Assembly: GCF_030684315.1 (NCBI RefSeq)
Contig: NC_081387.1
Location: 6,738,497-6,802,496, forward strand
DNA: 64,000 nt
Source of the DNA: Stegostoma tigrinum
Taxonomy: Eukaryota
Reading direction: 5' to 3'
The notes under the pieces were generated by a model that searched no databases, had not been told where the DNA came from, and saw nothing but the letters and a program-made list of their open reading frames with translations. The position numbers were made by a program, and so were the translations under genes. Positions 31,540 through 56,568 of this stretch are shown piece after piece (the stretch's first letter is position 1; every line of letters starts with the position of its first letter).

Positions 31540-31745
31540 GCAGCGCGGAACTTGAGTGAGAGTTTCTACTCGCAGCCCCTCCCCGAACCCTCGGACGACC
31601 AGTTACGAATCCGTATCTCTTCGTTGCAATTGCAAGATGAACTCAATTGGAGAACACTTGTGAGTGAAATTCAGTTTCCCGCCCCCGCTTCCTGCAAAGG
31701 ACTCTCTTTAAGTTTGCCGCCAGCAGATAACAAATTTAAAGAGAA
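31540..31745 (+). promoter_or_regulatory. Putative MHC class I proximal promoter
   Basis: CpG-enriched; ISRE-like agtttc motifs (~31561, ~31673), inverted CCAAT attgg 31646-31650, GC box ccgccccc ~31679-31686 and Ets-like cttcctg directly upstream of the ATG. Confidence 0.45.
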
Positions 31746-31818
31746 ATGGCAAGAGGATCCCACGGCGTGTTGCTGTCACTTGTACTAAGTTTCTACCGAG
31801 TACAACAATGCCTGACCG
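31746..31818 (+). CDS. MHC class I exon 1, signal peptide
   Basis: ATG in aaATGG context; MARGSHGVLLSLVLSFYRVQQCLT + G|gtgagt; 73 bp, phase 1; G+AC restores D of DSHSL; lies in a CpG-richer region. Confidence 0.82.
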
Positions 31819-34800
31819 GTGAGTACCCCTGATTGAGTTTACAAGAGACTGCGCGCTCGCCGCTTCTGACCTGAGGCTGTATTGGCATGCAGGTTTCACC
31901 AGTTGTTTTATAAAAGGGGATGGAGTTGTAAAGCTATAAAACCTGTCCTGTTTGTTGCATGTAAGCAACATTAGTTGCTTTGTTTTTGTTCTGTCACTGA
32001 CTGTCCGTTTCCTCTCAGCTGTCGCCTTCCACCGACCAAAGTAAACATCCTGCCGACATGACCAGAGGTCAGAAAGCCAAGACCGACTCTATTGGTTCCT
32101 AAATGTAAGCCGTGATAGCATTGCCCCTTCCCGGCCTCACGGTGCTCCGTGGACAAGAAAAAGTGGACAACTTGCCTTCAACTAGCGCCTTTTGCGACGT
32201 CAGGGCGCCCTGAGGAACATTACAGTTCGGCTCTCGACTCTCTTCACCCACCACCACCCCCTCCCCGCGTCCACATATACTTCGCTCAAAACATTTGCAA
32301 GCATAGATTACAAAGTGTGAAGCTGGATGAGCACAGCAGGCCAAGCAGCATCTCAGGAGCACAAAAGCTGACGTTTCGGGCCGAGACCCTTCCTCAGAGA
32401 GCTCAGAGAAGGGTCTAGGCCCGAAACGTCAGCTTTTGTGCTCCTGAGATGCTGCTTGGCCTGCTGTGTTCATCCAGCTCCACACTTTGTTATCTTGGAT
32501 TGTCCAGCATCTGCAGTTCCCATTATCACATTTGCAAGCATAGAGTTATGCATTCGTAAGAGCATGGAAACAGACTCTTTGGCCCAACCAGTTCACGCCG
32601 ACAGTGCTCCCAAACTGCCTGCGTTGGGCCCGTATCCCTCCTAATATTTCTTATTCCTGTGCTAATCTAAATGTTTTTTAAACGTGGTAACTGTACAGGC
32701 ATCCACCACTTTCTCTGGAAGTTCATTCCACACAGGAACCATACTCTAGGTAAAAAAAATTGCCTTTTTTTACAACTTTGTCCTCTCTCACCTTTACAAA
32801 TATGCCCCTTAGTCTTGTAATCCACCCTCCTAGTGTAAAGACAGCTGCCATTCACCTTATTTATAACCCGCATGATTTTATATACCTCATTAAGGTCACC
32901 GCTATACCTCCTACACTTCAGTGAAGTTCCAGCTGACCCAGCCTCTCTCCATAACTCAAAGCCTTCATGCTTTAAAGCAGATCTGTAGCTCGACTTGCGG
33001 TTGGAGTCGTTTGTTGGTTCGCTGAGCTGACTGGTTTTCATGCAAACATTTTCGTCTCCCTTCGAGGTGACATTGTCGGTGCTGCGTAGCCTTCTTTGAA
33101 GCGCTGTTGACTGTCGCGCTCTGTTTGCAGCAATTAAGTCTTAGACTTAGCCTCTTGTACATTTACACACTCACTGTCACTCTTGACTCTGGGTGTGTGA
33201 AACTACTATTTTTCTCACTGTCTCTCTCACACTGGATGGTCACCTGGTCTCCACCTCTTGCCATGCTGGTCTCCTCAGAAGATTCTAAGTTCTAAGAGGG
33301 TCATCTTTTATTGGATGGTTTTCTGAAACTTTCTGATTTTCGGGCCAGTTGGGGAGATACACTTAATAGCTTGAAACAGAGGCAACTTTTTGCAAGGCGT
33401 GGGACTGTCAATTTCTTTGTGTAGCAGGACCTGGTGCCTTTCTACCCAGATCCTCCTTTTATTCGGTGGTTAAATTGCCTTTTGTATTAATGTAATGTCA
33501 TCAGCACCTGGCTACTGTGTTTGCACCAGGATTGGTGTGTGGGCTTTGTGATTTCAGTGTTTTACTTGACCAATATACCCAGCATCTCTTACTGTTTCCT
33601 CAACCGAGGATTCCCCAGCTCCGTTGTCGACAGGGGCCTCAACCAGGTTCAACCCATCTCCTGCACTCCCAGCATCATCCCTTCTCTTCCATCCTGCAAC
33701 AGCAATGGGGTTCCCACCATCCCACCAGCATCCACATCCAGTAGACTTTCAGATGCCATTTCTGCCACCTCCAGCAAGAAGCCACGACCAGACACATAGC
33801 CCCCTCCCCTCCCTTGTCTGCCTTCCACAGGGACCGTTCTGTCTGGGACATCATAGTCCACACTTCCTTCAGCCCAACACCTCCCACAGCCCTACGGCAC
33901 CTTCCCCTGTAACCGGTAAAGGTGCAACACCGACCCATTCACCTCCTCCCTCCCCAGTATCCAAGGGCTCAAATATACCTTCCAGGTGAAGCAACACTTC
34001 ACCTGCACTTCCCAGAATCTAGTCTACTGCATTCGCTGCTCACAATGTGGAATGCTCTACACTGGGGAAATGAAGTGTAGACTTGGTGACCATTTTGCAG
34101 AACATTTACGTTCTGCTCGCAAAAAAAGACCCTGAACTACCTGTTTCCTTGATTTGCCACTTCAATGCACCACCCTGCTCCCTGGCCAACATCTCTGCCT
34201 CTGGCTTGCTACAGTGTTCCAGTGAAGCCCAATGCAAGCTGGAAGAACAGCACCTCATTTTGCACTTGGGGACCCTACAGCCCTCTGGGCTCAATATTGA
34301 GTTCAATAATTTCAGGGCCTAAACTCTTCTGTGTCCCAGCCCTCCACCCCACACACCAGGCCTTGTTACCACATAACCTGCCATTATACATCCCCTGCTG
34401 TTAGTCACTAACAGTCCCCATTAAAAACCACTCACCCTCCCAGCCTGATCGTTAGCAACTCCTTTGTCTGTCCTACTGTCTTTCTCTCTCTTTGGGCTCT
34501 ATCCTATCGTTTACTCCCTACCCCACCCACCTCCCAATTTTCTGCATATAAACTGACATTTTCCCAGACACTATCAGTTCTGAGGAAGGGTCACTGGACC
34601 TGAAACATTAACTCTGTTTTCTCTCCACAGATGCTGCCAGACCTGCTGAGTTTTTCCAGAAACTTTGTTTTTGTTCCTGATTTGCAGCATCTGCAGTTCT
34701 TTTGGTTTTTATCGCTTACTGTTTGGTGACATTAGTAATCTAACTGCATTTTAATAGCCAGGAAGCCGTTACAAGTGGTACTTTATTGAAGTACTACTGA

Positions 34801-37800
34801 CAAAAAGACTGAATTGTCGCTTTCTGTTCTAACTTTTTTCTGGTTCTATTGTTCCAACAGTTATGAAGTAATACAAGGGAAGCGCAAAGGCAAATATATT
34901 TAACTGGAAAAGGGCTAATCAATCACTTTAGAAAATGATCTGGTCTGAAATCACAAAGTATGTAGGGTCAGGTTAATTAAGCATAAGAAAACCTGAGGAC
35001 ATCTAAAGTTACATCTCCTTGGATAACTAAGCACGTCAAGGTGATATTGAATCAAAAAAGGTCTTTATGATAAATATTATATCTACAACTGAGCTGAAAA
35101 TAATCTGAATGTAGATTATAAAAAGAAGGTAACAATGATAGAATATATATGTCTGAAATTAAAATAATAGGGAATCAAAACATTTTTCAAAAAAATCTAT
35201 AAATAGCAAAAGGGAAATATGCCTGTTTAACTGGAGAGAATGGCCAGAGTATTAAGTGAACTCTCTTGCATTTGTCTTCACTTAAAAGACATACTACTAA
35301 TATAAAAGTAAAGAAAGGCAAAGCAAAGTTATTTGGTGGAATTGTAATCAGTAATGAGGTTGCAATCAATACCTCCAAAATTTCGTAAAATGTAAAACTA
35401 TATCTGCTCTGGTTTGGACACAGCATATGTTACTGAGGGATGTAAGGGCAACATCCTCGAGGATTATATGAGCCCTTTTAGGTATGCGAGTGTGGCCAGA
35501 AGTATGAATTATTGCAAACGATAATCCTTTGTTCAAGATGAGCTGGTGGTTGGAGTGGGGCAGAGTATTGAACAGATAAATCTGGCAAGTGTAGGCTTCT
35601 CAGCCTAACTTCTGTTTAGAAAAAAAAACTCTTTGAGATCTTAATCCATTAGAAATTAGTCTTGAGGAATGGTGGAGCAATCGATGAAAACTGAAGGAAA
35701 TTGTTCAAGGCAAATCATGTTTGACTGGCTTGATGAATATTTGTTGCAAGCTAGCTGAAGATTGGTTCATATTGTTCACAGTGGGTTCATGTACTTTAAA
35801 AAGGTGTTTGAAAGAACACTATAATAGACTTGCTAGGAATATTTAAACAAATGGAATTATAGAGACATGGAAGAATGAATGCATAATTGGCCTAGGATAA
35901 TAAAGTAGCAAGTCATGGTGGGAGGACACTCTTCAACTTGATACAAAGTCTAAAGTACTTTCCCCACCAGTCAGTATTAGGACAGGCTATTTTTGACATA
36001 TTAATGAACTCCATCTGTGTCTTAGAGCATTATTTGCAGGTGACATAATCTAGAAATTTAGTATGTAAAGAAGGCAACAGGATTCTTCTTCTGGAGTGCC
36101 CAAGTGAAATAGAAAGACATTTTGTTGCTGACATTTGAGGTTTGGGAATGATGTTTTTGTCAGGAAAGTTGTAGACATGTATATAGGCTACAAATTACAC
36201 TTTTTTAAAGGTTTGCAGGAACACAGGGAGCTGCATTGCATGTGATATGGGGAAATCTGTCAGAGTGGCAAGATAATTTGAGGTCACTGTTTATGAAAAT
36301 TTTTTATTGATTTCAAGGCTTTATTATTATAACAATAGGGTGCAAAAACTAAAAGGTTATGCTGAAACTTTACAAATAATTGATTAGTGCTGAAATGGAA
36401 TTGTGTTCAATTCTGGCTATCAAGTTTGACCAAGAAATGTGTCAAGGAAATAGAAGAACCACTCCAGAGATGGAGGGTTTTGGTTAAACGAGTGACCAGA
36501 GAAGATGTGCCTGTTCTCTCTGATTCAAAAACCTCAAGAGGTCATAGTTGTAGGCAATGATAGACTTTATGAGAATAAATCTGAAAAGTAATTTACTCAG
36601 AACGTCAATAAATTTGCCAAACTAAAAAGTGAAATTAACCAAATATTTTGTGATATGTTGGGATTTACCTTCGCTAGTGCTTTCAGTCTGTGTCTCAGTT
36701 TCCCACAAGTTTTAAGTTACGCTGCAGTGTATTGTTTACTAATCTAGTTTTGCTCACAACTAATTCTGCAATTAGAGGTCTGGCAGTCCAGACGAAATTT
36801 TACTGTTGTAAGTTAGCAAAAGAATTGGACCATTTTTTAAGTTAAATGAGTTGAAATCGCAATATGATAGCTGAGAAATTTAAAATCCATTCATTATCAA
36901 ATGTGGAATGGGAATCCATTATTTTAAATGGACACCATGCCACTACTAGATGTGATGAAAACCTATTTGGTTCATTAATCAGCTTTGAGGAAGTTTGACA
37001 TACCTTTTCAGCCTCGTGGAAAACTGTGACTTGAAAAGTATTTAAACTTAATCAAAATAAATTTGAGTTGAAGCAAGCAAAACACAATTCTGATTTGGGA
37101 TTATTTGACTGGCCTTTCATTGTTGTTGTGTCATACTCTGGGAACTCCCTTGCTTAAGCACTGTGGGAGTTCGTACACTTGAAAGATTGCTGTGGTTTAA
37201 GAAGGTAGCTCACTGCCACCTTCTCAGGGCCAATTCATGTTGAGCAGTAAGTTCTGGTCTGAGCAGTGAATGATCAAATAAAGATAGCCAACTGATACTT
37301 ACCCACCAGTTTTCTGCTGAGTGTGGAGAATGGCAATTAGTCACAAAAGATTGATGGTGGGATGGATTTGGTGGTGCAGTTTGTAAGTTGTCTGACTTGG
37401 TTTAGAAGTCAGGGAACTAAAACAAAAAGATTTCTGTACTTGTTAGTTGATTCCCAAATGCCAGTTTAATGATGGGAGACTGGTTGAAAAACTACCAAAC
37501 CGTGATTTCAAGTAAAACAAGGAATGAGTCTTAGAGAGATCCATTGAAAGAGGCCCTTTGACCCACCATGTTCTTGCTGACCAAGAAACACCAACCTACA
37601 CCAATCCCATTTGTCTGCACTTGGTCTTTCGCCTACTGTGCCCTGAAGTTTTAAGTGTTCAGCCAGATGCTTCTTAATGGTGTGAGAGTCATTGCCTCCA
37701 CCACCCTCACTGGCATCATACTCCTTATTTATCATCCTCTGGGTGAAAAACATCTTTCAGTCGGGTCTCCTTTAAATCACTTGCTCCTCACCTTAAACTG

Positions 37801-40800
37801 ATGCCCTCTGGCCTAAGATATATCTATGATGGTGAAAAATTCTCCTGATCTAACTTGACTATGCCTCTCATAATTTTAAAATACCTTAATCACTTAATCA
37901 GCTTCACCCCACCACCTTCCTCCCTGATTCCCCTCTGCTTCTAAAAACAAACTCTTCCCATCTCTCCTCATAATTGAGAACTTTCATTCCAGGTTGCATG
38001 TTGTTGAATGACCCCAAACCCTCTCTGGTGCAATCACATCTTTGATTGTATGATGACCAGAACTGCACATAGTATTCCATTTGTGGCATATTCATTGTTA
38101 ATAAAGTTGAAACAAACTTTTAACTTCTCAGTTGTGAATGAGGCATTGAATTATATCAGGAAGAAAGACACCGAGTTTCATTTCTGGTGAGAGATGATCG
38201 AGGTGACTTAAGTTTGTGAACTTATTCTTGCATGACAACATTTCCCTACCCCTCAGTCTAGGACACCAGGAAAAATAATACCCCTCAGTCTAGGACACCA
38301 GGAAAAATAATACATCAGAATTTCCATTACTGATCATTGGTAAATTAAGTTGTGAAAAGTTTTTGTGCACAAAGAATGCTTGAGTTCAATATTTCTCTCT
38401 TGTTTTGAAGAGACTGCAACCCATTAGTTTTCCAGATTATGTAGGAAATGACTGTATTGAGATATTTGGTTATTCATTTGAGTGATTTGTGTTGTAATGG
38501 AAATCTCTGGGTAGGATTATTCATCAACTGAACCAAGTAGAAAATAATCAGGATGCAGTTCCCACATTTACATTTACTTCTAATCACTTCCTTGAGTGTC
38601 AATGACAGGCATCAAAACTCTGATCTATTTTGTCCTCACCATACACATGCCTAAATCATTGATGTCAAATTTGTGTCAGAGGTAGCAAGTAATTGGCCGT
38701 ATCCAACAAGGTAGAAGCTACCTACCTCACCTTTGACATTCAATGGCATCGCCATTGTTGAACCTCCAATTATCAATAGCCCAAACAATACTATGAACCA
38801 GGAATGCACCTGAATTAACTGCAGACACGATGGCCATAACAACAGGTTAGATGCTTGGCATTCTGTGGTAGAAGCACACTGCCCGTCTACAAATGCCTTT
38901 CTAACATCTACAAGGCATACAAGAAGAGAGTGGTGGAATGCTCTGCATTTGCCTGGATGAGTCTAGCTCCAGTAGAAGCTGGACATCATCCAGGATACCA
39001 TTTCTCACTTGATTGGCACTACATCTACCACCTTTAAACACAAATTCCTTCAATCATAAATGTAGAGTGGCAGTGGCGTGAACATTTACAAATCTCATGA
39101 CAGCAACTCATCAATACAGAGAGTGGTGGTAGGGGGGGTGCTTTTCAGACTGGAGGTCTGTCACCAGTGTTGTTCCACAGGGATCAATTCTGGATTCTGT
39201 TTGTTTGTCATTGCTATAAATAATTTGTATGACAATATCAAAGGCATGGTTAGCAAGTTTGCAGACAGCATCAAATTCAGTGGCATAGCAGATAGTGAAG
39301 AAGGTTTTCTAAGAATACAAAGGAATCTTGATGAAATAGTGCAATGAGCTGAAAAATGGCAGATGGAGTTCAATTTGGATGAATGCAAGATATTGCATTT
39401 TAGTGGAAAAACAGGGACAGGACCTATACAATTAATGGTAGACTCTTGGGTATTGTTGCAGAACAGAGGGACATAGAGGTTCAGGTATGTAATGCTTTGA
39501 AGTTTGTGTCACATATCGACAAGGTGGCTGGAAAGGCGTTTAGCATGCTTACCTTCATTTATGAGTCCTTTGAGTATTGGAGTTGGTAAATCACGTTGAT
39601 GTTGCACAGGACATTGGTGAGGCCCCTTCTGTGGTACTGTGTCCAATACTACAATAGGACAGATATTATTAGGCTGGAAAGGATTCAAAAGAGATTTATC
39701 AGGATGTGGTTGGGAAGGTAAGGTATCAGTTATAAAGACAGGCTGGATAGATTTTTTTCACGAGTGTACAAAGTTGAGACGTGATGTTATAGATGTTTAT
39801 AAATCATGAGGGGTATTGATAAGTTAATAGTGGGTGTCTTTTCTGTATGATGGGGGATTTCAAAACTGAGGGTATATTTTTAAGGTGAGAGGAGAGAGAT
39901 TTTAAAAAAAAGACACAAGGGGCAAAATGTTTTTACAAAGAGGGTGGTTTGCATGTGGAATGAACTTCTTGAGGAAGTGGTGGATGTGCCAGGCACAGGC
40001 AGGCAGGACGAGCTCAGTTTGGGATTATGTTTGGTGTCAACTGGTTTGACCAAAAGAACTGTTTCTGTGCTGTATGACTCTAAGGTTCTATAAGCCTCCT
40101 CTGACAGTACCTTTGAAGCCCACAAACTTGGCTGTCCTGTTTGCAAAGGCTAAGGAAGCAGACACTTGGAAAGGCCATTGCCTGCCTGTTCCTGTCTATG
40201 CCGTACACCGTCTAACCTATACTGCCATTCCTTTGTTGTCACTCGATCAAATTTCGTTAGCTGCTTTCAACAGCGCACATTATCATAAAATAGGATTTTT
40301 GGAATATATTTCTCAAATTTCTTCTTAATGTATACAGTTTATTTCTCAGGCTCTTTGTGCCTATATTGATTGAACAATATAGGCACAAAGTAAGGACTTT
40401 TATTTTCAATGTAATGTGTTATGATTGGCTTATCATTTCAAGTCTTTCAGTAAGCTGCAATCAGCTGTGAGGAAGGGTCACTGGACTTAAAATATTTAAC
40501 TTTGTTTTCTCTTCACAGATGCTGCCAGACCCACTGAGTTTCACCAGCAATTTCTGGTTTAGTTTCAGAACTCCAGACTCTGAAATTTGTTGTTTTGTTT
40601 TAGTTTTGTGATATTTTCAGTGTTTGATTTGCCAATAGTGAGGATTTTTTTTCTTTTTCTCTTCTAGACTCTCATTCTCTGCTGTTTCAGTACACCTTAA
40701 ATCATGGGAGACCTGATTTACCAGAGTATAGTGTCCTGGGGATTTTGGATGGCTGCGAGATATACTATTTTGACAGCAATATGAAAATAACCGTTCCAAG

Positions 40801-43800
40801 GCAAAAATGGATGGCGGAAGCATTTGACAAGACTTACTGGGAACAGTGCACTATCACTAATGCTGGCTTCCATGGCATCATTAAGGGACAGGCTGATGAA
40901 TGGCTCCAGAAAGAAAACCAAACATCAAGTGAGTTTATTCATTTGAAGTGAAGGCAGTGAATGACAGGTGATTTTATGTTGGATGGGAACTGTGCAACAG
41001 GAGTGTTGAACCATTCTGCTATCTGCTAGACCTTTCCTGCCAATGTCATTTGATTTTCCTTTACTCTTTCCCTTTTGTTTTTTATAAATTGCCCTGTGTT
41101 TGTGCACCACAGGCTGAGCTGCATTTACTGCATGTGCCTAGTTGCCCTGGGAAAGTGGTGGTGAGCTGTGTTATTGAGTCACTGCAGCGTATGTGTTCTA
41201 GCTGGATGCAAAATGTCCTTGGAGAGGGAACGATAGGACTTTGATCCAGTGGCAGTGAAGAAACAGTGATATATTTCCAAGTCAGGATGGTGAGTAGCTT
41301 GGAGGAGAGCTTGCAGATGTGGCTGTTTCCTTGTATCTGCTGCCCTTGTCCTCGAGGGTAGCAGTGGTTGGCAGTTTGGAAGTTGCTGTCTGAGGATCTT
41401 TGGTGAATTTCCGTGGTGCATCTTGTGATTGTAGCAGTGTGTACTGAGTGTCAATGGTGGAAGCGGTGGTTACTTCTGGATGTGTTGCCAAACACATGGG
41501 CTGCCTAGTCCTGATGGTGTCAAGATGTTTTTTTTGTATTGCTGAAGCTGCACCCACCTAGGGAGCGTATTCCATCATACTCCTGACTTGACTATGTTAG
41601 ATGATGGAAATGCTTCGGGAATTCAGCAGGTGAGTTACTTGCTGCAGTATGCTTTACCTCTGATCTGTTATTGGAGCCACTGTATTTATATGGTGAGTCC
41701 AGTTGGTTTTCTTGTCAATGGTACTTGCTAGGTGATAAAGAATGGGAGATTCAGTGATGATGACAGCATTGAGTATCAAGGGATGGTGGCTATATGGTCT
41801 CTTATTGGAGATGTTCATTACCTGGCATTTGTGTGGTACAAATGTTACTTGCCAATCATCAGCTCAAGCCTGGATATAGGTCAGATCTTGTTACATTTTA
41901 ACATGTATTGGTTTCTCATCAGAGGAGTCTCGAATGGTGCTGAACATTGCACAATCATCAGCGTACATTCCCACTTCTGATCTTGTGATGGAGCGAAGGT
42001 CATTGATGAAGCAGCTGAAGATGTTTGGACCTTGAACATTACCCTGAGGAACTCCTGCAGAGATATTCTGTAGCTGAGATCACTAACCTCCAACAAGAAT
42101 GGCACAGTGGTTAGAGATATGCAGTAGCTCAGTGGTTGGCACTGCTGCCTCAGTACTAGAGACCCATGTTTGATTCCACCCTCGGGTGACTGACTGGAGT
42201 TTGTGCATTGCCATTATGCCTGCGTGGGTTTCCTTTGGAAGCTCCAGTTTCCTCCCATATTCCAAACATGTGCAGGTTGGGTGTTCGCCATGGAAAATGT
42301 GGGTTACAGGGCCAAGGTAAGGGGATGGGTCTGAGTGGGATACTCTTGGGAGGGTGATGGGCGAATAGCCTGTTTCCACACGGTGGGCATTCTATGGCCT
42401 ATGATTTAAAGAACAGCTACCTTCCTTTCTGTAAGTTATGACTCCAATCAGCGAAGAGATTTCCCACTGATTCCAATTGTTCTAGACATCCTTGATTTCA
42501 TGCTCGGTCAATCTCACCTCTGGAAATGTCCATGTTTCAGCCAAGGCTGTAATGAGTTCAGAAACCAAGTGGCCCTGGTGGAATGCAAACTGGGCATCAC
42601 TAAACAGATTATTGCTGAACATGTGCTGCTTGATAACCCTGCCAGAGATATCTTCCATCAATGATTGAGGGTAGACTGATGGGGGTGGGATTTGATTGCG
42701 TTGGATTTGTCCTGCTTTTGTGTACAAGACATACTGGGCAATTTTCCGTAGTGTCAGGGGATGCCAGTGTTGCAGCTATGCTGGGACAGCTTGACTAAGG
42801 GAGCAGCACAAGTCTCTGGGCCACAAGTCTCCAATATTATTTCAGAATGTTGTCAGGGCCTAGAGTCTTAATAGTATCCAGTACTTCCAACCTTTTACTG
42901 GTATCACTTGGAGAGAAATAAATTGGCTGAAGACTGAAATCTGTAATGATGGGAATCACCAGATGAGACCAAGATGTATGATCTACTCGGGACTTCTGGT
43001 CAACGACTGTTGTGAATGCTCCAAGTTTATCTTTTTGCACTGGCATGTTGGGCTTACCTGTCACTGAGGATGGGATATTTTGGTGCCTTCTTTCTCCAGT
43101 CAGTTATTTAATTGTTTACCACCATTAGCAACTGGACGTGGCAGGACTGCAGATCTTAGATCTGATCAATTGGTGTGGGACTGCTTAGCTGTGGATATCA
43201 GCTTATGCTGTTTGGCATGCAAGTAGCACTATTTGGTAATGTCACCACATTGACAGCTCATTTTTAGGTGTGCCTGGTGCTTCTCCTGGCATGCCTTCCT
43301 GCATTCTCCATTGAACTAGAGGTAACCCCTGGCTTAGTGACTATAGTCGAGTGAGGGATATTGCAAGCCATGAGGTTGCAGACTGTTTTGGAGCACAGTT
43401 CTGCTGCTGTTGATTACCCACACTGCCTCACGGAAGCCCAGTCTTGAGTCACTTAATCTATTCAAAACCTGACCCAATTTGCATGATTGTCATGCCACAC
43501 CACATGATGGAGTGTATTATTAACGTGAAAGGGAGACATTATCTCCAAGAGGACTGTACGGCGGTCACTCTTTCTGGAACTGTCATGGACAGATGCACCT
43601 GCAGCTAGCAGATTGGTAAGGATAAGATCAAATATGTTTCTCCCTTTTTGTTGGTTGCCTTACCCCATGCCATAGACCCTGTCTGACAGTGATGTCCTTT
43701 CGGACCCAACCAGCTTGATCAGTAGTCGTACTACTGAGCCACTGTGGGTGGTGGACATTGAAATCGGGCACCCAAGTGCATTCTGTGCCCTTGCCACCCT

Positions 43801-46800
43801 CTGATTCTTCCAGGTGCTTTCAACATGGAGGAGCATATGACTGTATACCACTGTGCTGTCATCTTTACTGGCTCTGCCCTGCTGGTGGGAAAGTACCTAT
43901 CCAGGGATGATGGAGGTGTTGTTGGTTTCATTGTTTAAAAGGTATGATTCCATGAGTATGACTATGTCTAGTATGACTAGTGAGAGACAGCTGACCCAAT
44001 TTTAGCACAAACTCCCGACTTAGTAGCGAGGACTTTGCAATGCTGACAGGTCTGTTTTTGCCATTGTCATTTCCGGTCCTTAGGTTGATGCTCCAGCCTG
44101 TTGCATTTCTTTATTATTATGTTACTACAGTAATTTATTGTTATGTGTTCATGAAAATGTGTATAAGCTGCCACCATTAATCCAGCACTATCTTAATTGT
44201 ATACACTATAAAAGAGAAACAATGCAAACAAAGTGAAGAAAAATTCCACTTTTTGCTCCAACCATGGATTCTTGATTTCATAAGTAGCTATGAGTTATGC
44301 CTTCCTCAACATCCAGCAAAGTTGGCCCTGAGGCCGCAACACTGAGGAGGAAGCGTGCTGAAGCAGCGTGCACAGTCGCCAACCAGACCCAGGATGTCAC
44401 CTCTACCAAAGCTGCCTCATGGCTACCGATACTGCACCTGCCACCAGACATGGAGGCTGTCCCAAATCTTGAGGATTGGGGCCCATTCTCAACTTCCAAG
44501 GACCGAAGGACCATCCAAGTGAACTCCTGAGGATTGAGCGATAGTTCACTCTGCCTCTGAAACTCCAACGGAGAAGAACTAACCCCAAGCCATCAAGGGT
44601 TCGACAGTTGCTCAAGCCACAATTGCCATGGCCATGAAGAATGGACTGGATCAGCTGCTCAGCCGCTATCCCCAACCTCTCCTCACCACTACAGCCAGAG
44701 ACAGAAGACAAAATGAATTTGATTCAACAGTCAAATGAAGTAAAGTTAAAACTTTTGCAAGAAGGTGCAGTTGGTCATGTGAATAGAGGAGGTAGGAGCT
44801 TGAACACCTGTCCTAGCACCCCCATCTTCTTTGTTGAGACTTCATAGTGATTGATTACTCCCAAATGGCTTCCTGGGCCATTTCAGAGGGCTGTTGAGGG
44901 TCAACCACATTACTGTGGGTCTGGAGTCACGTGTAGGCCAGACCAGGTGGTGAGAGTTTTATCTCCTTCCCTGAAAATGTTAGTGAATAGGTGGGTTTTT
45001 CATGAATTGACAGTGACTTCCTGATATTTTGGTTGAATTCAAATTCAAACATCTGCCTTGCATACCCAGAACATTAGCTGCACTTGTGGATTAATAGTCT
45101 AAAGAAACTATCATTCCTCCTCCTCACGTTTGCAACTCAAACTGTCGCTGAATAGGGTGCATGGCTGTCTGATTGTGCTCACTGATTTTTCAACTTGGTT
45201 GAATTGGAACTTAGCTACCAGGAGACATTTTAATTTTAACATCAGGGAAATATGGACAGCAGATTGCAGCATTACACCTGAAACAATAAATGGATATATG
45301 GGACTCTGGCCTAAAGAAAACCTCAGATGCTCTTTTATAATCCTGCAAGTGGTTTGAGAAACTAAGCAAGAATACTTGCTGCAGAGGAGTGATCCAATTG
45401 GAAGGAGGCACTGTATTGTAGTTGTGAAGTCAAATGTATTTTCACAGAAATAGATGAATTCAAATGTTTAATAAAATTAGATAAAATCAGAGACTGGGTA
45501 TTTCCCAGGGTCAGCTGATTATTAATAAGGGACATGCCTGACACTTGAGAGTACCAGTGAAAATCTGGATTATTTTAAGAAAATTCTCCCAAGTATCAAT
45601 TGTATGATTACTAAAACTATTGTTGCAACACTATTAAGAACTGAACATAATGCATGCATTCATTTAGCAGAGGAAAATCACTGCAGACAGCAGTTTTGAG
45701 CCCAACTATGCAATGTAATACATGGAGGAAACCATTGAACCAGTCCTGCTCCTCCATCAATGAGATTATGAATGAGCTGGTTGTGGCTTTAACTGCACTT
45801 GTCTTTCAAGTGCTACATCCACCCCCATCCTCGCATTCCATCTCAAACCCCCGCTCCCACCTCCTGCCTTTCCGTACCCTTGGGCTCTCTGTGATGGCAA
45901 ATGTTAAAGCTCTCGCTGTTGTGCTGTACTTCTATCATCCTGTGTAATAATGCTTGTACACTTGTTTAATGTACTGCTGGATATGAAGGATCAAATGAGA
46001 AACCAAAATTGTCAGATTTGTTTTGATCAGATGCAATGAATATTTAAGGGCTCATTGACTGAATTAATGTTTAGGTACCCATTACCTGCAAGGACTGTTT
46101 GGCTGTGAGCTGCATGATGCCAATCCGAATGAAGGGATTTTGAAGTTTGCGTTTGATGGCAGATACATCCTCAGTTTTGATAAAGATACATTGGTGTGGA
46201 TTATACATGATAAGTTTGCAAAAGAATTCAAAGAGAAATGGGATAAGGAAACAAAGATGAACCATTATTTCAAGAGCCTGTTAGAAAATGACTGTCCAGA
46301 TCTATGGAAGACGTACTATTCAATTGGAAATGCCTCTTTAAGCAGAAAAAGTAAGTCAATAAAAATATGATTGTAGATTTGCTTGTTGGTGTGCAAGGCA
46401 TTGGCTTACATGCGAGAACTGTAAACACATACATTTTAACTAGTGGCTAATTCAGTTTTAGAAAAGGAGGAAAAGCGAAATGTAATTTCCTTGACTCCAA
46501 TAATGCACTGTGTGATTTGTGTGGACGTTGAAATAATTATCTTTCTTTCATACAGCTCCCCCTGAGGTCTCCATTATTGCCAAGAGTGGCAGCTACTCTT
46601 TTCTACAATGCATTGTGATTGGATTTTACCCACAGCCCATCAACGTGACCTGGTTGAAGAATGGAAAACCTGCTCATGAGACAAACTCTACTGGGTTATT
46701 GCCCAATGAAGATGGGACGTTCCAACTAAAGACAACCCTCCAATTCGACCCATATGATGGCAGCCAATATGCCTGTCATATTGAGCACATCAGCTTCCCA

Positions 46801-49800
46801 GGCGGAAAGACTGTCCTTTGGGGTAAGCACTATTGCTGGATCCTCCTTCAACTAATGATTATTGTGTTGCCCACAGACCCCAAAGCAATCGGATCTCTGA
46901 AAGCTGATCAGAGCGCGGTCAACTCTGCTTCTCCTACAAATCTTCAAAATTTTTCATTTAGGCTCTGGTAAGTAACCATAGAACTTCCTAAACGAAATAA
47001 ATCCTGAGCAACTCCTGTGTTTCTCCCTCAACCCCATTAATTGTTAGTCCATTCTGTTTGGAAGAATAACAATTCCATATTATCTGAATCATGAAATACA
47101 GAGGGATCCAGGTATCCTAGTGCATGAATCACAAAGGATTAGTATGCAGATGCAGTAAGTTATTAGGAAAGCTAACGGAACATTTTCATTTATTGCAAAG
47201 GTGATTAAATGCAAAATTGAGGAGGTTGGCCTTTAGTTATTGCAGTTCAGATTACTAAAGGAAGTTGCTCAGAAACTATTAGATGTATTGGTGGTCACCT
47301 TCCAAAATTCAATTGACTCTGAAACAGATCCGACAGATGGGAGAGTGTCAAATGTAACCTCATGACTTAAAGAGAGGGGAAAGAAAGAACAGAATTGGAG
47401 ACCAATTAAGCTAACGTCAGGAGTGGGTAAAATGTTGGAATCTGTTATTAAAAATGAGTAAAGAACATAAAAGCATGAACAGGATTGCAAAAAGGTAGTA
47501 TGAGTTTATGAAATGCAAATTATATTTAACAGATCTGCTGGAGTTTTTTGAGGATGTAATTAGTAGAATAGATCAGCAAGCAATCGGGTGTATTTGGATT
47601 TTGAGAAAGCTTTTGATAAGAAGTAGGTAAGTTTGTTTAGATTATGAGATGGGGGTAGGGCTAATATTGAGCCATAGAGCTGCAAAGCACGGAAGCAGAT
47701 CCTTTGGTCCCTCTCGTCCATGCCAACCAAATATTCCAATTAATCCATTTGCCAGAATTTGGCCGATCTCCCTCTCAAACCCTTCCTATTCGGGTACCCA
47801 TATAGATGCCTCTCTAAATGTTGTAATCATACCAGCCTCTGGCAGTTCATTCTATGCACACACAGCCGTCTGTGAAAAGAATTGCCCCTTACATCCCTTT
47901 TATATCTTTCCCCCTGCTCATTAAACCTGTGCTGTCAGGTTTTGGAACTCCCCTACACTGGGAAAAGATCCTATACTATTTATACTATCCATGTCCCTTA
48001 TGATTTTATAAACCTCAAAGGTTACCCTTCAGCCTCTGATATTCAAGTGAAAATAGCCCTCGCCTCCCCATAGCTCAAACTCTCCAACCCCAGCAAGATC
48101 CTTTGTAAAAGTTTTCTGTGCACTTTCAAGTTTAACTGCATCTTTTCTACAGCAAGGAGACCAGAACTGAATTCAGTATTCTAAGGCTGGCCTAACCAAT
48201 GTCCTGTACAGCCACCAACATGACCTCCTAACTCCCATTCTCAATTCTCTGTTCAATAAAGGCACATACCAAATTCCCTCTTCAATACACTCTCTACTCC
48301 TGACTACACCTTCAAGGAAGTATGAATGTGCACCCCAAGGTCTCTTTGTTTGGTAACACTTCGCAGGACACGACCATTTAGTGTGTAATTCCTGCTCTGA
48401 TTTTCCTTACAAAAAATCAGAAATCCAACATTTATGTCAATTAAATTCCATCGACCACTTCTCAGTCCACCGCTCATCTGATCAAGCCCTGTTGTCCTCT
48501 GAGGTAATCTTCCTCATTGTCCAGCACACCACCAATTTTGGTGTCGTCTGAAAATTCACTAACAATTCGTCCTAAAATCTCATCCAAATCATTTACATAA
48601 ATGACAAAAAGCAGTGGACCCAGCACCAAGTCATTTGGCACACCACATGTCACAGGCCTCCAGTCCAAAATAAAACAGCCATTTACCACCACCTTCTGTC
48701 TCCTACTTTCGAGCCAATTTTGTATCCAAATTTGCGAGCACTCCCTGACTCCACGTGACCTAACTTTGCTAACCAATCTCCCAGGCTAAACCTTGTCAAA
48801 TGCCTTGCTGAAGTCCATATGGACTATGTCCACCCCTCTGCCTTCGTCAGTCTTCTTTGCTGCATGTTCAAAATACACAATCAAGTTAGTGAGACACGAT
48901 TGCCCACGCAAAGTCATGTTGACTATCTTTACCCAGTCCTTGCCTTTCCAAATATATATAAATCCTATCCCTCAGAATCCCCTGCTACAGTTTTCCCATG
49001 ACTGACTTCAGGCTCACCAGTCTATAGCTCCCTGGCTTTTCCTTACCACCTTTCTTCAGTAATGGTACCACATTAGCCACCATACAACCTTCTGGCACTT
49101 CACCTGTGGCAACTGATGATACAAATATCTCAGCAAGGGGCCCAACAATCACTTCCTAGCTTCTCACAAAATTCTGGGATACATTTGATGAGTTCCTGGG
49201 GATTTATTCACCTTAATGTGTTTCACCTTCACTGTAATAATGACACTTTTTCCATGCGATCACATTTGTGTCTCCAAGTTCTTTAGCTTCCATATCTTTC
49301 TCCACAGTAAACACTGAAATGAAACAGTTGTTTATTATCTCACCCATCTGCTGCGGTTTCACACATAGACAGTCTTGATATTCTCTAAGGGACCCCATTC
49401 TCTCCCTCGTTACTCTTTTGCCCTTAATGTATTTGTGGAATCTGTTTGGATTCTCCTTAACCTTATTGTCAAAGCTATCTCATATCTCCCTTTTTCCCTC
49501 CTGATTTCCCCCTTGAGTATACTCCTACTGCCCTTATACTCATCGAGGAATTCATTTGATCCTTGCTGTCAAAACTAACCATATTCCTCTTTTTCTTGAC
49601 CAGAGTATTAATTTCCCTAGTCATCCACCATTCCCTGCACCTACCAGCCCTGCTCTTCACATTAACAGAAACATTCTGACTGTGAACTTTCATTACCTCA
49701 GTTTGGAAGGCTTCCCCCTTTCCACCTGCCCTTTCACCTGAGAATAACCTCGCCCGGTAAGCTTTTGAAAGTTCTTGCCGAACACCATCATAATTGGCCT

Positions 49801-52800
49801 TATTCCAAATTGGCAATGATTAGGAATTAGTTGATAGAAAGGAAACACAGTGTGAAAAAATGGGTCTTGTTTGCTGAATAGAAGACATTGATTCACGTAG
49901 TGTAGCAAGGCTCGGTACTCAGCCTCAGTTATTCACTATATATTAAAGATCTGGATGAGCGAAACGAATGCGTCATTTCCAAGTTTGTTGCCAATGCAAA
50001 ATTGGATGGGATTGTGAGTTGTGAGGAAGATGCAAAGAGGTGTCAAGGTTATTTAGACAAGTTGAGTGAACAAAGCACATGACCAATGTATAAATGTGAT
50101 AAATGTGACGTCAGTGTGAAAAACCGAAAGAAAAGTAGTACTTAAATGGTATATTGGGAAGAGTGGATGTAAGAGAGGATTTGGGTGTCTGACACAGCTA
50201 TCAATGAAAATAGGCAGGTGCAAGAGGCAAAAGCAAATGCTTCATTGCAAAAGGATTTGATTTCAGAAGTTGTGACGTTCTGTTGCAATTATGATGTGGA
50301 GATGCCAGTGTTGGACTGGGATGGACAAGGACAGAAATCACGTGACACCAGGTGAAAGTCCAGCAGGTTTACTTGAAAACACCTTCAAATAAATCTGTTG
50401 GACTATAGCCCACTACAGTTATACACGGCATTGGTGAAGCCAAACCTGGGCTTTGCATGCAATTTTGGTCTCCCTACCTATGAAAGGATATATTTGCCAT
50501 AGAGAGAATGCAGTGGAAATTTACTCAGCTGATATTGGGGAATGTCAGGACTGCCATTGGTGGTTTGACTAGGCATGCAGAATAAAGAACGAGAGGAGAT
50601 CTTATTAAAAACATAAAATTTTAACAGGCCTGAAATGACTGGATAATTTATTCTAGATGGAGAGTTTCCAACCGATGGACACAATCTGAGGATAAAGGGT
50701 ACACCATTTCGGACTGATTTGGGGAAACATTTCTTCACTCAAGGGGACCTGAACCTGTGGAACCCTCCATTACAAAAGGCTGTGGAGAGCAGTCACTGAA
50801 TATACTCAATAAAGAAAGAGAGGCATTTTTAGATTTCGAAAGGATCAAGGGGTTTGGGAAGAATGCAGGAATCTGGCAGAGAACAGGCATCTTCACATTT
50901 CAGAGTGGAACATGCTGAAAGAGTTCAATGACATATTCCTGCACATAGTGCGTAGTATCCAGGCCACAGGAGAAACCACACTTTGGAAACTGCACATTTA
51001 CGGGTCATGTTATTTATGGAAGGATGTAAATGGGTTGGTGACAGTTGAAATAAGATTTCCCTGACCAACACCTGGAATAAGTCCAAATAAAAGCAAAATA
51101 CCGTGGATGCTTCAAATCCTAATATTTATATTTTAACTGCTGGAGAAACTCAGCAGTTCTACCGGAATCTGTGGAAAGAGTAAGAATGTTAACATTGAGT
51201 CTAGTGGCTCTTCCTTAGAACCAAATTGATTGTTTTTGTGCATGTTGATAAAAGTGGGCATAGAGAAAAGTTGAACAGATGGTAAAGGGTGATTGTATCA
51301 AAAGACAAGGTGAGTGCTTATGGTAGTAAAGGAGTGATTGAAGTGCGATATAGACATTGGATAGGAGAAAATAATTTGCACCTCTGAGTCACATCCAGCA
51401 AGACACAAACAGGGGGAATGTGGTTGGGTGATGTGATCAAAATGAAGGACAGTGTTTATGCTCTGAAGTTATTGAACTCAATTTGAATCCTGAATGCCGT
51501 AAAATGCCTGAGTGTAGAATAAAATGCTGCCCCTCCAGCTCACATTGAGCTTCAATGGAACAAAGCAGGCCTCTCATTGAAATGTTATCTTGGGAGCAAG
51601 ATCATTTATTGATTTGACTGATTTCTCCACCAATGCTGTGACATTAGAGGAGTCTCTTTAACATGTCTGGAAATAAATGGAGTGTCTCATTGAGATCAGT
51701 TGAACAGAGTCGTCTCGTATCTTCTGCACGTTAAAAGAGTAAGTGATGATGTGATTGCAACATATATAAGGTCCTATCAGATCATGATAAGTTTGATTTG
51801 GAGCATATGTTCCCTTTTCTGAGGAATTGAGATCTAGAGCTCACTGTTTTGGAAAATAAGACATCAACAATTTAACATGAGGTAAATTTATTTTTCTCTT
51901 GGACGGTCACAAGTGTTTGGTATTCTCTTCCTGAAAAGGTAGTGGAACAGAGTCCTTGAATATTTTTACGGCAGGGATGGTTAGATTCTTGTTCAGCCAG
52001 GGACAGAAAAGTTATCATACTGAGCCATTGTGCTGATTTCTCATTGCAGTCAGATAAGCTATGATCTTGTTCAGCAGTGGAGAACGTTCAAATGACTGGC
52101 ATACTGCTGCACCTTCTTGATAGGTTCTGATTCAACAAGCAGATTGTGTCATCTGTTGACCTTCTCTCACGCAGTGTGAACATTTCAGAGTTTGCAGATG
52201 TGCCCATTGCACAGAGAAGTGCGTGTCATTCATTTGAGTTGAGAAGCTTTTTTTGGCCGATAAAATTGTACCTCCTCCTCCATTTCTGTGTCCCTTCATT
52301 TGTTGCTTCCCCTCTTTTTGTTTCTTTTTCCTTTTCTGGCCTTATCCTCCCCATCTTCTTCTTTTAATTTCTACCCTCAGACTTATTCTCCCTTCCCCCT
52401 CCCTTGTTTCTAAGTACAGTAATAAATTGTGTACTTCATGTCATGGGAATAGAAATCATATTAAACATTCCCATTACTTGAGCAATGTTATGACTATATG
52501 ATTATGTATGTCATTGACCTTCCATTCAAAATTTTAAAATCAAAAGTGCTGTATAATATTTTTCAGAAGGAAAAGTGAAGAACAGCAAAAATGTGGGGCT
52601 GATTGTCTTGGGTGTACTGGTGTCACTGGCAATTATTCTTATCATATTTATATGGTGGAGGAGACAAAGAGGTAGGCAAGTTTTTCTTTAATGTATCACA
52701 GAGTAACTTTGCAAAAAATATTTTCTCACCCATGTGCATGATTATGCTTGATTTTACAACATTCAGAAATGGTAGTGACGGTGGCTCAGTAGGTAGCACT

Positions 52801-55800
52801 GCTGCCTCACAACACCAGGGGCCAAGGTTCAATTCTATCCTCTAGCAACTCTCTGTATGGAGTTTGCACATTCTCCCTGCGTCTGTGTGAGTTTCCTCTG
52901 GGTGCTCTGGTTTCCTCCCAGTGTCCAAAGGTGTGCAGGCGTGGTGGATTGGGCATGCTAAATTGCCCATATTGTTCAGGGAAGTGTAGATTAGAGGGAT
53001 GGGTTTGGGTGGCTTGAGTTCACTGTGGACTTGTTGGGCTGAATGGCCTGTTTCCACACTGTAGGGATTCTGTGCCGTTTTCTCAAGGAAAGATTTTCTC
53101 ATGAAAGTTTGTTTCATCAAAAATAAAACAATAAAATTCAAAGTAATGGTGGACTGTATCAAAAAAGACTTGATACAAAGTAAGTTAGAACACCATAGGA
53201 AGCTTGTTCTGAGTCATCTTCAGTTATTCAAGGTAACATATAATGGACATGAAGGTTTTTGTAAATGCGAACAATTGACAGATGGAATTTAATGCTGAGA
53301 AGTGTGAAGTTATATATTTTGGTACTAAGAATGAGAAACGATAATAAAACAAAGGCAGAATTCTAGAAAGGGCAAGGGTAAGCAGGAAACCTGGGATATA
53401 TGTGCACCAACATTTGAATGTTATTGTGTGGGCTGGAAAAGGTGTTAGAAAAAGATGAGCACTATTGTGCACTGGAAACTGGAGTGCAGAACAAATAAAC
53501 AAGGAATTTGTGAGGGAATTTTATAAAGACGCAGATTTGGTTTCAAGACAGAATTGTGTCCTGTTGCACCCACCTTTTTCCTTCTTGGAGGAAAACTTCA
53601 CAGAGGCCACAGAAAGGTTTGTGAGAATGTTTCTAGCAATGAGTGAGTTCTCTTATGTTACCTGAAAAAAAAAGGAATGTTCTACTTGGAAGTGTCTATA
53701 CAGAGAAGTAACTGGATAGCAGTGATTGAAATAATGCTATGCCTAGACAGATACTGAAAGGAAGAAACTGCTCCAATGGTGGATGGGCTGTAAATCAATG
53801 ATCACTATTATGAGGCTAATTAATGGCAAAATAGCCAACAACAACATGAGGATACCTTTCCACTTCAGCTAACAGAGCGGTGTAAGACAGATTCAGTTGT
53901 GACTTTCAAAGGGCCTGTGGATATATGGCTTCAGAGAAAACATTTCCAAGAAAGGACAGGAGTGTATGACGAGTTGAGTTCCCCTCAGACGGCCAGCCTC
54001 CTTAAGTGCTGTGACCGTTTAATTATTCCATAAACCTATATCACTGTCACCTAAATTTCAAGATTGCAGTCTGAGCGAGTGAAACATCTGCCAGAGGCTT
54101 ATCTCTGACACATGAGGACATCAATCTGTACTGGTGAATAAATCTGACTTGTAAACTGAGCTGCTCAACCCATAATTCTGCCCATTGTGACAATACTTTG
54201 ATCTTGGAATGGAGCCGAGGTTCGGGTCACTGAACCCTGAACGCTGACCTAGCTTCAAATCAACAATGTCCACCAGTGATCATCAAGCCTCCAAGTAAGA
54301 TTGAAATGAATCAATTGTATTCTGGGTGTATGCCAGTGTCTGATTTGAATATTTTTTCTTCTGGCTTTTGCTGTTCAGTTTGAGTAATTTCAGCATGGCA
54401 TAAACAGCCCCACAAAAGCAGGACATTGTCAGCTGCTAACAGCTAAAGTGTACAATCTTGTATAAGGTATGTATTAAGATATCTCTGATACAGCTGCATT
54501 TGTCGTTCACACAGCAAGCAGGATTGTATGTGTTTCATGAACAATGCACAATATCATGAAATGGAATATAATAACATGGAATTGGACCATAGATATAAAA
54601 AGAGTTTAAAATTTGTTGGACATTATAAGTTCATTGTTATATAGCATGGAAACAGGCCATTTTGGTCCAACTTACCCATGCTGACCAGCTTTCCCAAACT
54701 GAACTAGCCCCATTTGCCTGCGCTTGGCCCATATCTCTCAAAATCTTTCTTTTCCTTGTACCTGTTTAAATGTCTTTTTAATTGCACCAACATTTACCAT
54801 TTCCTTTGGCAGCTTGTTCAACATACGCATCACCCTCTGTGCAGAACAGGTTGTGCGTCAGAACCTTTTAAATCTCTCGCCCTCTCAACTTAAACCTATG
54901 TCCTCTAGTTTTAGACTCCCCTACCCTGGGGTAAAAGACCTTTTGCTAATTACCTTATCAGTGTCCCTCATGATTTTATAAACCTCTATAAGGTCACACC
55001 TCTCTCGGGGGGGGAAAAATGTCCCAGCCTATTTGAACCTCCCATCACCATTAAATGTTCCAGTCTCAGTTATATCCTTGAAAATCATTTTTTGCATTTG
55101 AAAGCGTGAACCACTTTGATCTACTTTGTCAACACCGTATTCTTGGCAACTTGGTGATTCCCATGGAGTCACTGCTCTTGGCCTCTGCTCTGAGGAGCCA
55201 CAGTAAATTTGTATTCTGATTTCTTCAGACCTCAGGCCAGGGGATTCCTACAGGATTGACTGGATGGCCATGAGTTGCATCCCTCTGCTTCATACTCCCT
55301 CAGCTTTTAACTTCTCAGCCCAAGAGCTACCGCCAGCGTACTCTCGTGTTGCAGAGTTGCCTGTGGCAGTCTTCTCCCCACCGAGAATTTTTCTATGAAT
55401 GCATTTCCCTGCAATAATTACAATACTGGACTCTCTTTACTGGAATTCAAAGACATCACTGGTAGGAAGTGACAGGTTGTAGTCAAATATTCACAAATGA
55501 TGTATCATTCAAATTACTTTTAAGCAGTGTTTGCAGTTTTTGATCTCCGATGTCCTGTCAATGACTGTGACTGGCTCACTTTCCCAAAGGTGCATGAGAC
55601 CAAATAAGAGTATTAAAGTTGTGAAAATATAATTTTGGTGGATGTTGATGTGTTGGGAAATGGTCTTATAAAAATTGCACTCTTGTCGATAATGTTTGGG
55701 ATCTATTGTGAAAAGAGAATGAATACATTGCCTCATTTACTACACTACACTCTTCAGTGTTTGTTTTTCTGGATTTTCTAACATTTATTTTCCGTTCTCT

Positions 55801-55819
55801 AGGTTACAATGTTATTTAA
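31746..55819 (+). CDS. Non-classical MHC class I heavy chain, 332 aa; join(31746..31818,40668..40928,46075..46350,46556..46822,52567..52671,55803..55819)
   Basis: Six GT-AG exons, all phase-1 introns, total 999 bp with no internal stop: leader, alpha1, alpha2, alpha3 (Ig C1), TM and cytoplasmic exons. Confidence 0.92.
32306..32527. mobile_element. Young Penelope-derived hairpin insertion with target-site duplication
   Basis: ~90-bp near-perfect inverted arms; flanked by acatttgcaagcataga at 32291-32307 and 32528-32544. Confidence 0.88.
32370..32397 (-). ncRNA. Hammerhead-ribozyme-like core
   Basis: Minus strand CTGAGGA-a-GGGT-ctcg-GCCC-GAAAC-GTC; canonical GUC triplet, weak stem I. Confidence 0.5.
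32545..32975 (-). mobile_element. CR1 LINE 3' end
   Basis: GDLNEVYKIMR motif in ORF 32667..33041. Confidence 0.8.
33585..34710 (+). mobile_element. Penelope-like element 3' part (GIY-YIG endonuclease and pseudo-LTR)
   Basis: FLNRGFPSSVV; FTCTSQNLVYCIRCSQCGMLYTGE..RLGDHFAEHL; CKLEEQHLILHLGTLQPSGLNIEF; pseudo-LTR with ctgaggaagggtcactggacctgaaac near 34580. Confidence 0.85.
34870..36650 (+). mobile_element. Old, highly degenerate CR1 LINE
   Basis: Eroded RT motifs in collinear order (ggcaaatcatgtttgact, tttaaaaaggtgtttga, tttgcaggtgac). Confidence 0.6.
38247..38313 (+). repeat. Tandem duplication, 2 x 32 bp
   Basis: tacccctcagtctaggacaccaggaaaaataa repeated perfectly. Confidence 0.95.
39115..40083 (+). 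mobile_element. CR1 LINE 3' part
   Basis: MVSKFADSIK-like RT motif through to the tatgactcta tail. Confidence 0.8.
40668..40928 (+). CDS. MHC class I exon 2, alpha1 domain
   Basis: Polypyrimidine tract + ag; DSHSLLFQYT...LDGCEIYYFDSN...PRQKWM...TYWEQ...ENQTS; conserved NQT glycosylation site; gtgag donor. Confidence 0.95.
41130..44100 (-). mobile_element. Degenerate non-LTR retrotransposon (endonuclease + RT) in class I intron 2, with an HE1-like SINE at ~42100-42405 (+)
   Basis: LDTIKTLGPDNI and NLFSDAQFAFHQGH peptides; same family as pieces at ~17690-18010 and ~25545-26190. Confidence 0.7.
46075..46350 (+). CDS. MHC class I exon 3, alpha2 domain
   Basis: 276 bp; THYLQGLFGCEL...FAFDGRYILSFDKDTLVW...KEKWD...ENDCPDLWKTYY; C101-C164 pair present. 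Confidence 0.95.
46556..46822 (+). CDS. MHC class I exon 4, alpha3 Ig C1 domain
   Basis: PPEV...LQCIVIGFYPQPINVTWLKNG...LPNEDGTFQ...YACHIEHISF...VLW; G|gtaag donor. Confidence 0.96.
47670..49820 (-). mobile_element. CR1 LINE nested inside an older + strand CR1 (~47230-47650 and ~49820-50950)
   Basis: WIQNWLESRRQKVVV, LGPLLFVIYVNDLD and EFSDDTKIGG motifs; the host CR1 resumes after 49820. Confidence 0.85.
52567..52671 (+). CDS. MHC class I exon 5, connecting peptide and transmembrane segment
   Basis: tttcag|AA...; EGKVKNSKNVGLIVLGVLVSLAIILIIFIWWRRQR; G|gtagg donor. Confidence 0.9.
52779..53072 (+). mobile_element. HE1-like SINE
   Basis: cggtggctcagtaggtagcactgctgcctcac head and ctgtagggattct tail. 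Confidence 0.82.
54635..55100 (-). mobile_element. CR1 LINE 3' end
   Basis: ctcatgattttataaacctctataaggtcac is the reverse of the GDLIEVYKIM-coding sequence. Confidence 0.8.
55803..55819 (+). CDS. MHC class I exon 6, cytoplasmic tail (G)YNVI*
   Basis: Branch-like tctaac plus polypyrimidine tract ttttccgttctctag|GTTACAATGTTATTTAA; phase matches exon 5. Confidence 0.7.
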
Positions 55820-55974
55820 CCAGGGCCTGAGATGGTGAAATGCTTGAGTGGAATTGGCAGCAAGACAGACTGAAATTAATAATTTCTTTGTAACTACAGC
55901 TGTTTTAATTGCATAATCATTTTAAATGCATTTTATATTTCTAATAATTTTACTAAAATATTAATTATTTGCTC

Positions 55975-56185
55975 AAAAACAAAAAAGTAGTTGCTGGAAA
56001 AGCTCAGCAGGTCTGGAAGCATCTGTGGAGGAGAAAACAGAGTGAACTCAGAGTTCTGAGGAAGAGTCACTGGACCCTAAAAGTTAACTCTGTTTTCTTC
56101 TCCACAGATGCTGCCAGACCTGCTGAGCTTTTGCAGCAACTTTGTTTTTGTTCCTGATTTACAGCATCCACAGTTCTTTTGCTTT
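55975..56185. mobile_element. Penelope-derived hairpin in the probable class I 3' UTR
   Basis: gttgctggaaaagctcagcaggtctgg / ccagacctgctgagcttttgcagcaac inverted arms. Confidence 0.8.
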
Positions 56186-56562: not shown

Positions 56563-56568
56563 AATAAA
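56563..56568 (+). promoter_or_regulatory. Candidate polyadenylation signal of the class I gene
   Basis: First AATAAA seen downstream of the class I stop codon. Confidence 0.35.

Follow-up and report, generated by a model that had tools for sequence, protein, structure and literature searches.

The window analyzed here is a 64,000-nt stretch of the zebra shark (Stegostoma tigrinum) contig NC_081387.1 (6,738,497–6,802,496), and a gene for an MHC class I heavy chain occupies positions 31746..55819 on its + strand. The gene consists of six exons with a CDS of 999 nt, which encodes 332 amino acids with no internal stops, and all five introns have GT..AG boundaries and are in phase 1. The product is identical in sequence to the S. 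tigrinum RefSeq protein XP_059495352.1 (P0001), and the complete 332-aa class I ORF described in an initial annotation of this DNA is thus an intact gene. The encoded protein is composed of a leader, the alpha1, alpha2, and alpha3 domains, a transmembrane helix, and an 11-residue tail, and matches the Pfam families MHC_I (E 2e-23) and C1-set (E 4e-17), both past their cut-offs. Exon 1 (31746..31818, +) runs from the ATG to a GT donor in phase 1 and encodes a signal peptide of 24 aa, of which 23 residues match the whale shark ortholog. The alpha1 domain is encoded by exon 2 (40668..40928, +), with F7, Y9, Y59, C63, N67, F70, W81, and K84 in HLA numbering, and the alpha2 domain by exon 3 (46075..46350, +), with G97, F99, K115, Y122, F143, K146, W147, L159, and Y171 in addition to the C101–C164 pair. 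Exon 4 (46556..46822, +) encodes the Ig C1 domain of alpha3 (Pfam C1-set, E 3.6e-17), and exon 5 (52567..52671, +) the connecting peptide, the transmembrane helix (300–327 in the structure model), and a basic stop-transfer sequence. The acceptor of exon 5 is the sole one with a hydrophobic reading within 46850–56500. The last exon (55803..55819, +) supplies the C-terminal YNVI, a motif of the YxxPhi type, and the stop codon.

RefSeq also annotates an isoform X2 (XP_059495353.1), whose N-terminus (P0018) maps to an alternative first exon at 14741..14762 (+), followed by GTAAGT; this exon does not encode a proper signal peptide. A regular expression scan of 31001–31760 identified a putative inverted CCAAT box at 31646..31650 (+), 100 nt 5' of the ATG, while no match to simple patterns for kB or ISRE sites was found in the same region. 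The first AATAAA past the stop codon (56563..56568, +) is a candidate poly(A) signal.

The gene neighborhood includes a TRIM gene upstream (coiled coil at 4914–5213 and PRY-SPRY at 12487–13005) and a single-exon GPR139-like receptor gene downstream on the – strand (56946–57968), the product of which is 59% identical to the GPCR adjoining the UGA gene of the little skate. In the MHC table published for sawfish (PMC10751288), genes of the TRIM/PRY-SPRY and GPR139-like kinds are found around MHC-Ib genes. Both families are multicopy and the window contains no core MHC genes; the surroundings fit an MHC-Ib cluster without proving one. A tblastn search of the 64-kb window revealed no further class I gene or gene fragment.

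The gene is the zebra shark UGA, an ortholog of nurse shark UGA and a typical representative of a lineage already described. For both groove exons, the top match in the PDB was 9CH4_A, with E 1.3e-51 for the alpha1 exon (runner-up 9e-12) and E 2.4e-51 for the alpha2 exon (runner-up 1.3e-14), a lead of more than 36 orders of magnitude over the second entry in each case. The entry 9CH4, released on 2026-03-18, is titled ‘Crystal structure of shark nonclassical MHC CLASS I, UGA’, and by-eye comparison indicates that its alpha1 and alpha2 stretches are those of the sequence ‘Gcirratum_UGA’ in supplementary file 10 of PMC10751288. As far as that publication was available, its text mentions UFA by name, and UGA appears solely in the supplement. 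The gene was therefore already known, in that it is annotated in RefSeq under a generic name and its lineage has been both named and crystallized. A literature search on zebra shark MHC class I gave nothing relevant, and a search that took in few subscription journals returned no primary paper on the UFA and UGA structures, although one may exist.

Orthologs of UGA were identified in 19 named shark and ray species. The alpha1-alpha2 region is 62–92% identical to these orthologs (20 rows scored, with 97% for a second zebra shark record) and at most 40% identical to 122 other class I ectodomains. In a quick IQ-TREE maximum likelihood tree of 57 rows hand-picked from 143, among which nurse shark UGA, UFA, UEA, CD1, and MR1 were not included, the 21 UGA rows of sharks and rays grouped together (SH-aLRT 99) and branched approximately in the order of the species, and the zebra shark copy was placed beside the whale shark and the second zebra shark record. 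The group was separate from the classical, UBA-, UCA-, and UDA-like rows, the last three labels having been assigned by eye against the supplement of PMC10751288; by the same kind of comparison, the sequence P0050 resembles the little skate UGA given there.

A structure model based on a 90-sequence alignment (mean pLDDT 87.8), which superseded a 10-sequence model (pLDDT 55.5), is in agreement with this assignment. The model aligns with 9CH4 over 268 residues without gaps at 88% identity (Z 29.9, rmsd 1.4 Å, target TM-score 0.96). Zebra shark and nurse shark UGA have G97, F99, K115, Y122, F143, F156, and L159 in common, whereas the zebra shark protein has F7, V24, N67, and W168 where nurse shark has Y, I, E, and L. 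Similarity to the shark classical molecule 6LUP is much lower (32% identity, Z 25.8), and lower again to shark UFA (8GM8; 28% identity, Z 20.9). The latter shares with UGA the nonclassical character, the fold, and a description as a CD1-like lipid-binding molecule (PMC12562908), but constitutes a separate lineage, and the zebra shark gene did not prove orthologous to nurse shark UFA. The model scores against chicken CD1-1 (25% identity, Z 24.7) and human CD1d (20% identity, Z 22.1) are below the Z of 25–27 obtained for classical and YF1-type class I molecules, although an alignment-driven model leans toward the class I average. That the model resembles CD1 no more closely in fold than it does classical class I is one observation against a lipid ligand.

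To compare groove residues, HLA numbering followed the alignment with HLA-A2 given in supplementary file 10 of PMC10751288, and the same mapping recovered all eight canonical peptide-terminus anchors in one Triakis and one Mobula class I protein as controls. The zebra shark copy keeps four of the eight (Y59, K146, W147, and Y171) and has F7, K84, F143, and L159 in place of the others. The replacements listed in the initial annotation (Y7F, R/Y84K, T143F, Y159L, E63C, and W167L) are all present in this mapping, which confirms F7, K84, F143, L159, C63, and L167 as well as G97, K115, and Y122. Its list of hydrophobic groove residues is also correct apart from L24, as position 24 is a valine and the leucine is at 25, while the polar residues T66, N67, Q77, E80, K84, K146, and D163 had been omitted from it. 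Across 35 groove positions drawn from the HLA pockets, the zebra shark copy has 22 hydrophobic and 7 polar or charged residues, compared to 15–16 and 12–13 in the Triakis and Mobula controls. The mean hydrophobic count in the 122 other class I ectodomains is 17.3, and because 8 of the 122 reach at least 22, groove hydrophobicity alone does not appear unusual among nonclassical molecules; judged from its residues, the groove is nonclassical and hydrophobic but not extreme.

Most of the substitutions listed in the initial annotation characterize the whole lineage. G97, F99, L114, K115, F156, and L159, along with I74 on the groove, occur in 26 of 26 UGA rows and Y122 in 25 of 26, and H71, Q77, Y155, and D163 are invariant polar residues of the helices. 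The Y7F replacement is not lineage-wide, as Y7 is kept in 24 of the 26 rows. A disulfide between C31 and C63 was considered and dropped, since C63 occurs in only 10 of the 26 rows and whale shark has Ser at position 31. Residues related to CD8 and beta2-microglobulin (beta2m) had also been described as altered, and K115 and Y122 are indeed present. D122 is presumably a beta2m-contact residue, where a Tyr could weaken the contact. The accompanying hint of altered beta2m binding is nevertheless weak, because Q96, D119, and G120 are invariant in UGA rows and the Triakis protein with eight anchors likewise lacks Q115, having R instead.

The 11-residue tail terminates in YNVI, a YxxPhi-type motif on which the initial annotation had not remarked. 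Among 28 UGA rows, retained from 56 stored rows by removing near-duplicate isoforms and copies, 19 have a YxxPhi motif after the basic stop-transfer sequence, corresponding to 17 of 19 species; it is absent in whale shark (YSLT) and in three sawshark models. The same rule matched only 3 of 60 other class I proteins, in which the median tail length is 33 residues. Shark classical UAA (6LUP; Triakis allele cluster P0101) resembles UGA in domain layout and fold, and classical and UBA-like shark tails have a Tyr at a similar place. The UAA tail is 33 residues long, and in both kinds of tail the hydrophobic residue at +3 is missing, which suggests that the UGA motif may be convergent with that of CD1. 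CD1B, C, and D have short tails that end in such a Tyr motif (PMC5002281), and the skate UGA tail YQNI is the same as the CD1B motif. A CD1-type motif at the end of the tail leads to the prediction of endosomal recycling with lipid exchange for UGA. No such YxxPhi-based prediction was encountered in the available portions of PMC10751288 and PMC12562908.

Taken as a whole, UGA is probably a low-copy nonclassical class I gene conserved in sharks and rays. Its zebra shark product likely pairs with beta2m and likely has a lipid as its ligand instead of a peptide, and the YxxPhi motif predicts recycling through endosomes in a CD1-like manner. A 2025 review (PMC12562908) mentions, as a personal communication, that a crystal structure and mass spectrometry suggest binding of CD1d-comparable lipids by UFA and UGA. 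This gives second-hand support to the non-peptide, possibly lipid, ligand proposed in the initial annotation, with which the groove composition is consistent. Under the preferred reading, the UGA heavy chain would be paired with beta2m, as is assumed from the invariant Q96, D119, and G120 despite Y122, and a lipid would be held by the hydrophobic groove floor and helices (G97, F99, L114, I74, F156, and L159). The complex would recycle through endosomes via the C-terminal YxxPhi motif, where lipids might be exchanged, and UGA-lipid could then be recognized by invariant-type T cells. Conservation between species is similar for alpha1 (68%), alpha2 (69%), and alpha3 (69%), a pattern that a fixed ligand would predict and polymorphic peptide binding would not. 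Within alpha1-alpha2, conservation is marginally higher in the groove columns (0.83) than in the rest (0.76; p 0.03 without correction for phylogeny), which also agrees with a fixed ligand. CD1 (human CD1b/c/d and chicken CD1-1) is comparable to UGA in that it has a hydrophobic groove and a short tail with a four-residue Tyr motif at its end, and probably also in being low in copy number, but the two differ in that identity is 20–25% with Z 22–25 and that UGA keeps class Ia anchors; the score for Pfam MHC_I_3 (PF16497) is 29.8 bits, below the cut-off of 35.

Some observations run against a lipid ligand. The published lipid claim for UGA takes the form of a personal communication within a review (PMC12562908), and the kept Y59, K146, W147, and Y171, together with Y7 in 24 of 26 rows, could hold the end of a peptide or lipopeptide. 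UGA may be compared with chicken YF1*7.1, which would imply binding of a lipopeptide or acylated amino acid, with Y59/Y171 and K146/W147 for the polar end and the floor residues G97, F99, L114, and F116 for the chain. The anchors kept number four in the window copy and five in most orthologs, the helices carry the invariant polar residues named above, and the YF1*7.1 structures, among them complexes with N-myristoylated or N-palmitoylated glycine, are scored above CD1d (Z 25.4–25.8, rmsd 2.0–2.2 Å). This explanation is improbable, however, in view of the CD1d-comparable lipids reported for UGA (PMC12562908), and the fold match is unspecific as YF1 is scored no better than classical chicken class I. 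The groove might also contain a structural lipid or be empty, with UGA serving as the ligand of a receptor, whether of the NK type or another, or itself being a transport receptor in the manner of FcRn, HFE, or ZAG. K115 (26/26) and Y122 (25/26) are lineage-wide, as if a different partner had been fixed, a recycling receptor could likewise make use of a YxxPhi tail, and the model is similar to ZAG (Z 24.8) and HFE (Z 24.0), but we know of no partner and the groove columns are conserved at least as much as the rest, and such a role seems less probable still.

A peptide-presenting function, either as a classical UAA molecule or with a restricted set of peptides, could be argued from the four retained anchors and an overall fold near classical class I. 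It is very improbable given that the controls keep eight of eight anchors, that identity to 6LUP is 32%, that the gene is placed apart from the Triakis/Mobula group in the tree, and that alpha1-alpha2 is conserved between species. Membership in classical UAA is excluded by the tree, the anchor count, and the identity to 6LUP, and the earlier description of the gene as non-classical is supported. The suggestion in the initial annotation that the gene is UEA-like or represents an undescribed sublineage could appeal to the generic RefSeq name and to the available part of the PMC10751288 supplement, in which UEA had 0 matches, so that no UEA sequence was compared. It is scarcely credible and was abandoned, as the protein is 88% identical to a named and crystallized UGA and is nested in the UGA group in species-tree order. 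Given the UGA match, membership in UEA itself appears unlikely.

Copy number, as estimated from RefSeq records, varies amongst UGA-bearing species, with two loci in zebra shark, one in most sharks, 10 records in Rhinoraja, and three clusters in sawshark. The second zebra shark UGA (XP_059495376/7) is 97% identical to the window copy in alpha1-alpha2, and the two records may be true duplicates or uncollapsed alleles. The leader of the second locus has a weak match to the window at 1851–1898 (E 3.2), to which no weight is given here. Beyond the leader, the two records differ at seven positions, including positions 7 (F in the window copy vs. Y) and 67 (N in the window copy vs. E). Of the 26 UGA rows, one has N67 and two have F7, and the pairing of Phe7 with Asn67 is found in the window copy alone. 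In HLA, positions 7 and 67 line the B pocket. A speculative and rather doubtful extension of the preferred reading makes UGA an MHC-linked lipid presenter of the CD1 kind, with an endosomal-sorting tail that sharks and rays have both retained and that originated separately from CD1 through shortening of a class Ia tail at the conserved Tyr; a recent duplication in zebra shark would then have re-cut the B-pocket side (Y7F and E67N), with the two copies presenting different lipid head groups.

The zebra shark gene itself adds little, being annotated in RefSeq and belonging to a lineage already named and crystallized. The zebra shark pair of copies nevertheless forms a natural system for examining which groove residues set the ligand, and the conserved YxxPhi tail provides a simple, testable prediction of CD1-like trafficking. 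More broadly, the UGA lineage is relevant to the question of whether jawed vertebrates have presented lipids for as long as peptides.

The UGA gene of the zebra shark, an MHC class I gene, lies between a TRIM-type gene on the forward strand (4914-13005), with a coiled coil and a PRY-SPRY domain, and a single-exon GPR139-like 7TM receptor gene on the reverse strand (56946-57968), which is arranged tail to tail with it. Between the coiled coil and the PRY-SPRY domain, the TRIM-type gene contains a long tandem tract (approximately 9200-9390), putatively read as Asp/Glu/Asn-rich. In little skate RefSeq models (P0038), the UGA alpha1-alpha2 region is fused to a receptor of the GPR139-like type, and this fusion probably represents neighboring genes joined by the gene model.

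The RefSeq isoform X2 uses an alternative first exon on the forward strand (14741-14762), just behind the TRIM-type gene and 26 kb 5' of exon 2, which would be predicted to yield a chain without a signal peptide. The alpha2 splice acceptor region (46050-46074) has a poor polypyrimidine tract, despite which this acceptor is the one used in the RefSeq model. The second zebra shark UGA record (P0014/P0015) has a modelled leader that differs from that of the gene described here and is almost the same as those found on UDA-like and UCA-like proteins from other sharks. Its first exon may be a borrowed one, or the leader may be an artefact of the gene model.

The elephant shark protein P0112 (Callorhinchus milii XP_042202284.1) resembles, in a by-eye comparison, the protein that the supplement of PMC10751288 lists as elephant shark “UGA”. 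Its alpha1-alpha2 identity is only 31%, and it fell outside the shark and ray UGA group in a quick maximum likelihood tree (57 rows chosen from 143), where its long branch makes the placement unsure. In the same tree, a little skate protein encoded outside the window (P0069, XP_055486430.1; 40% alpha1-alpha2 identity) was sister to all UGA rows (SH-aLRT 97). P0069 keeps two of the eight peptide-terminus anchors and has hydrophobic residues at 24 of 35 groove positions, and the YxxPhi motif was not found in its tail. Its accession number adjoins that of a skate UGA record. P0069 is thus a diverged relative of UGA and may represent an unnamed sister lineage. In Rhinoraja longicauda, 10 near-identical UGA records (P0009 and P0027-P0035) share one contig, which suggests a local expansion of a gene otherwise described as single or low copy.
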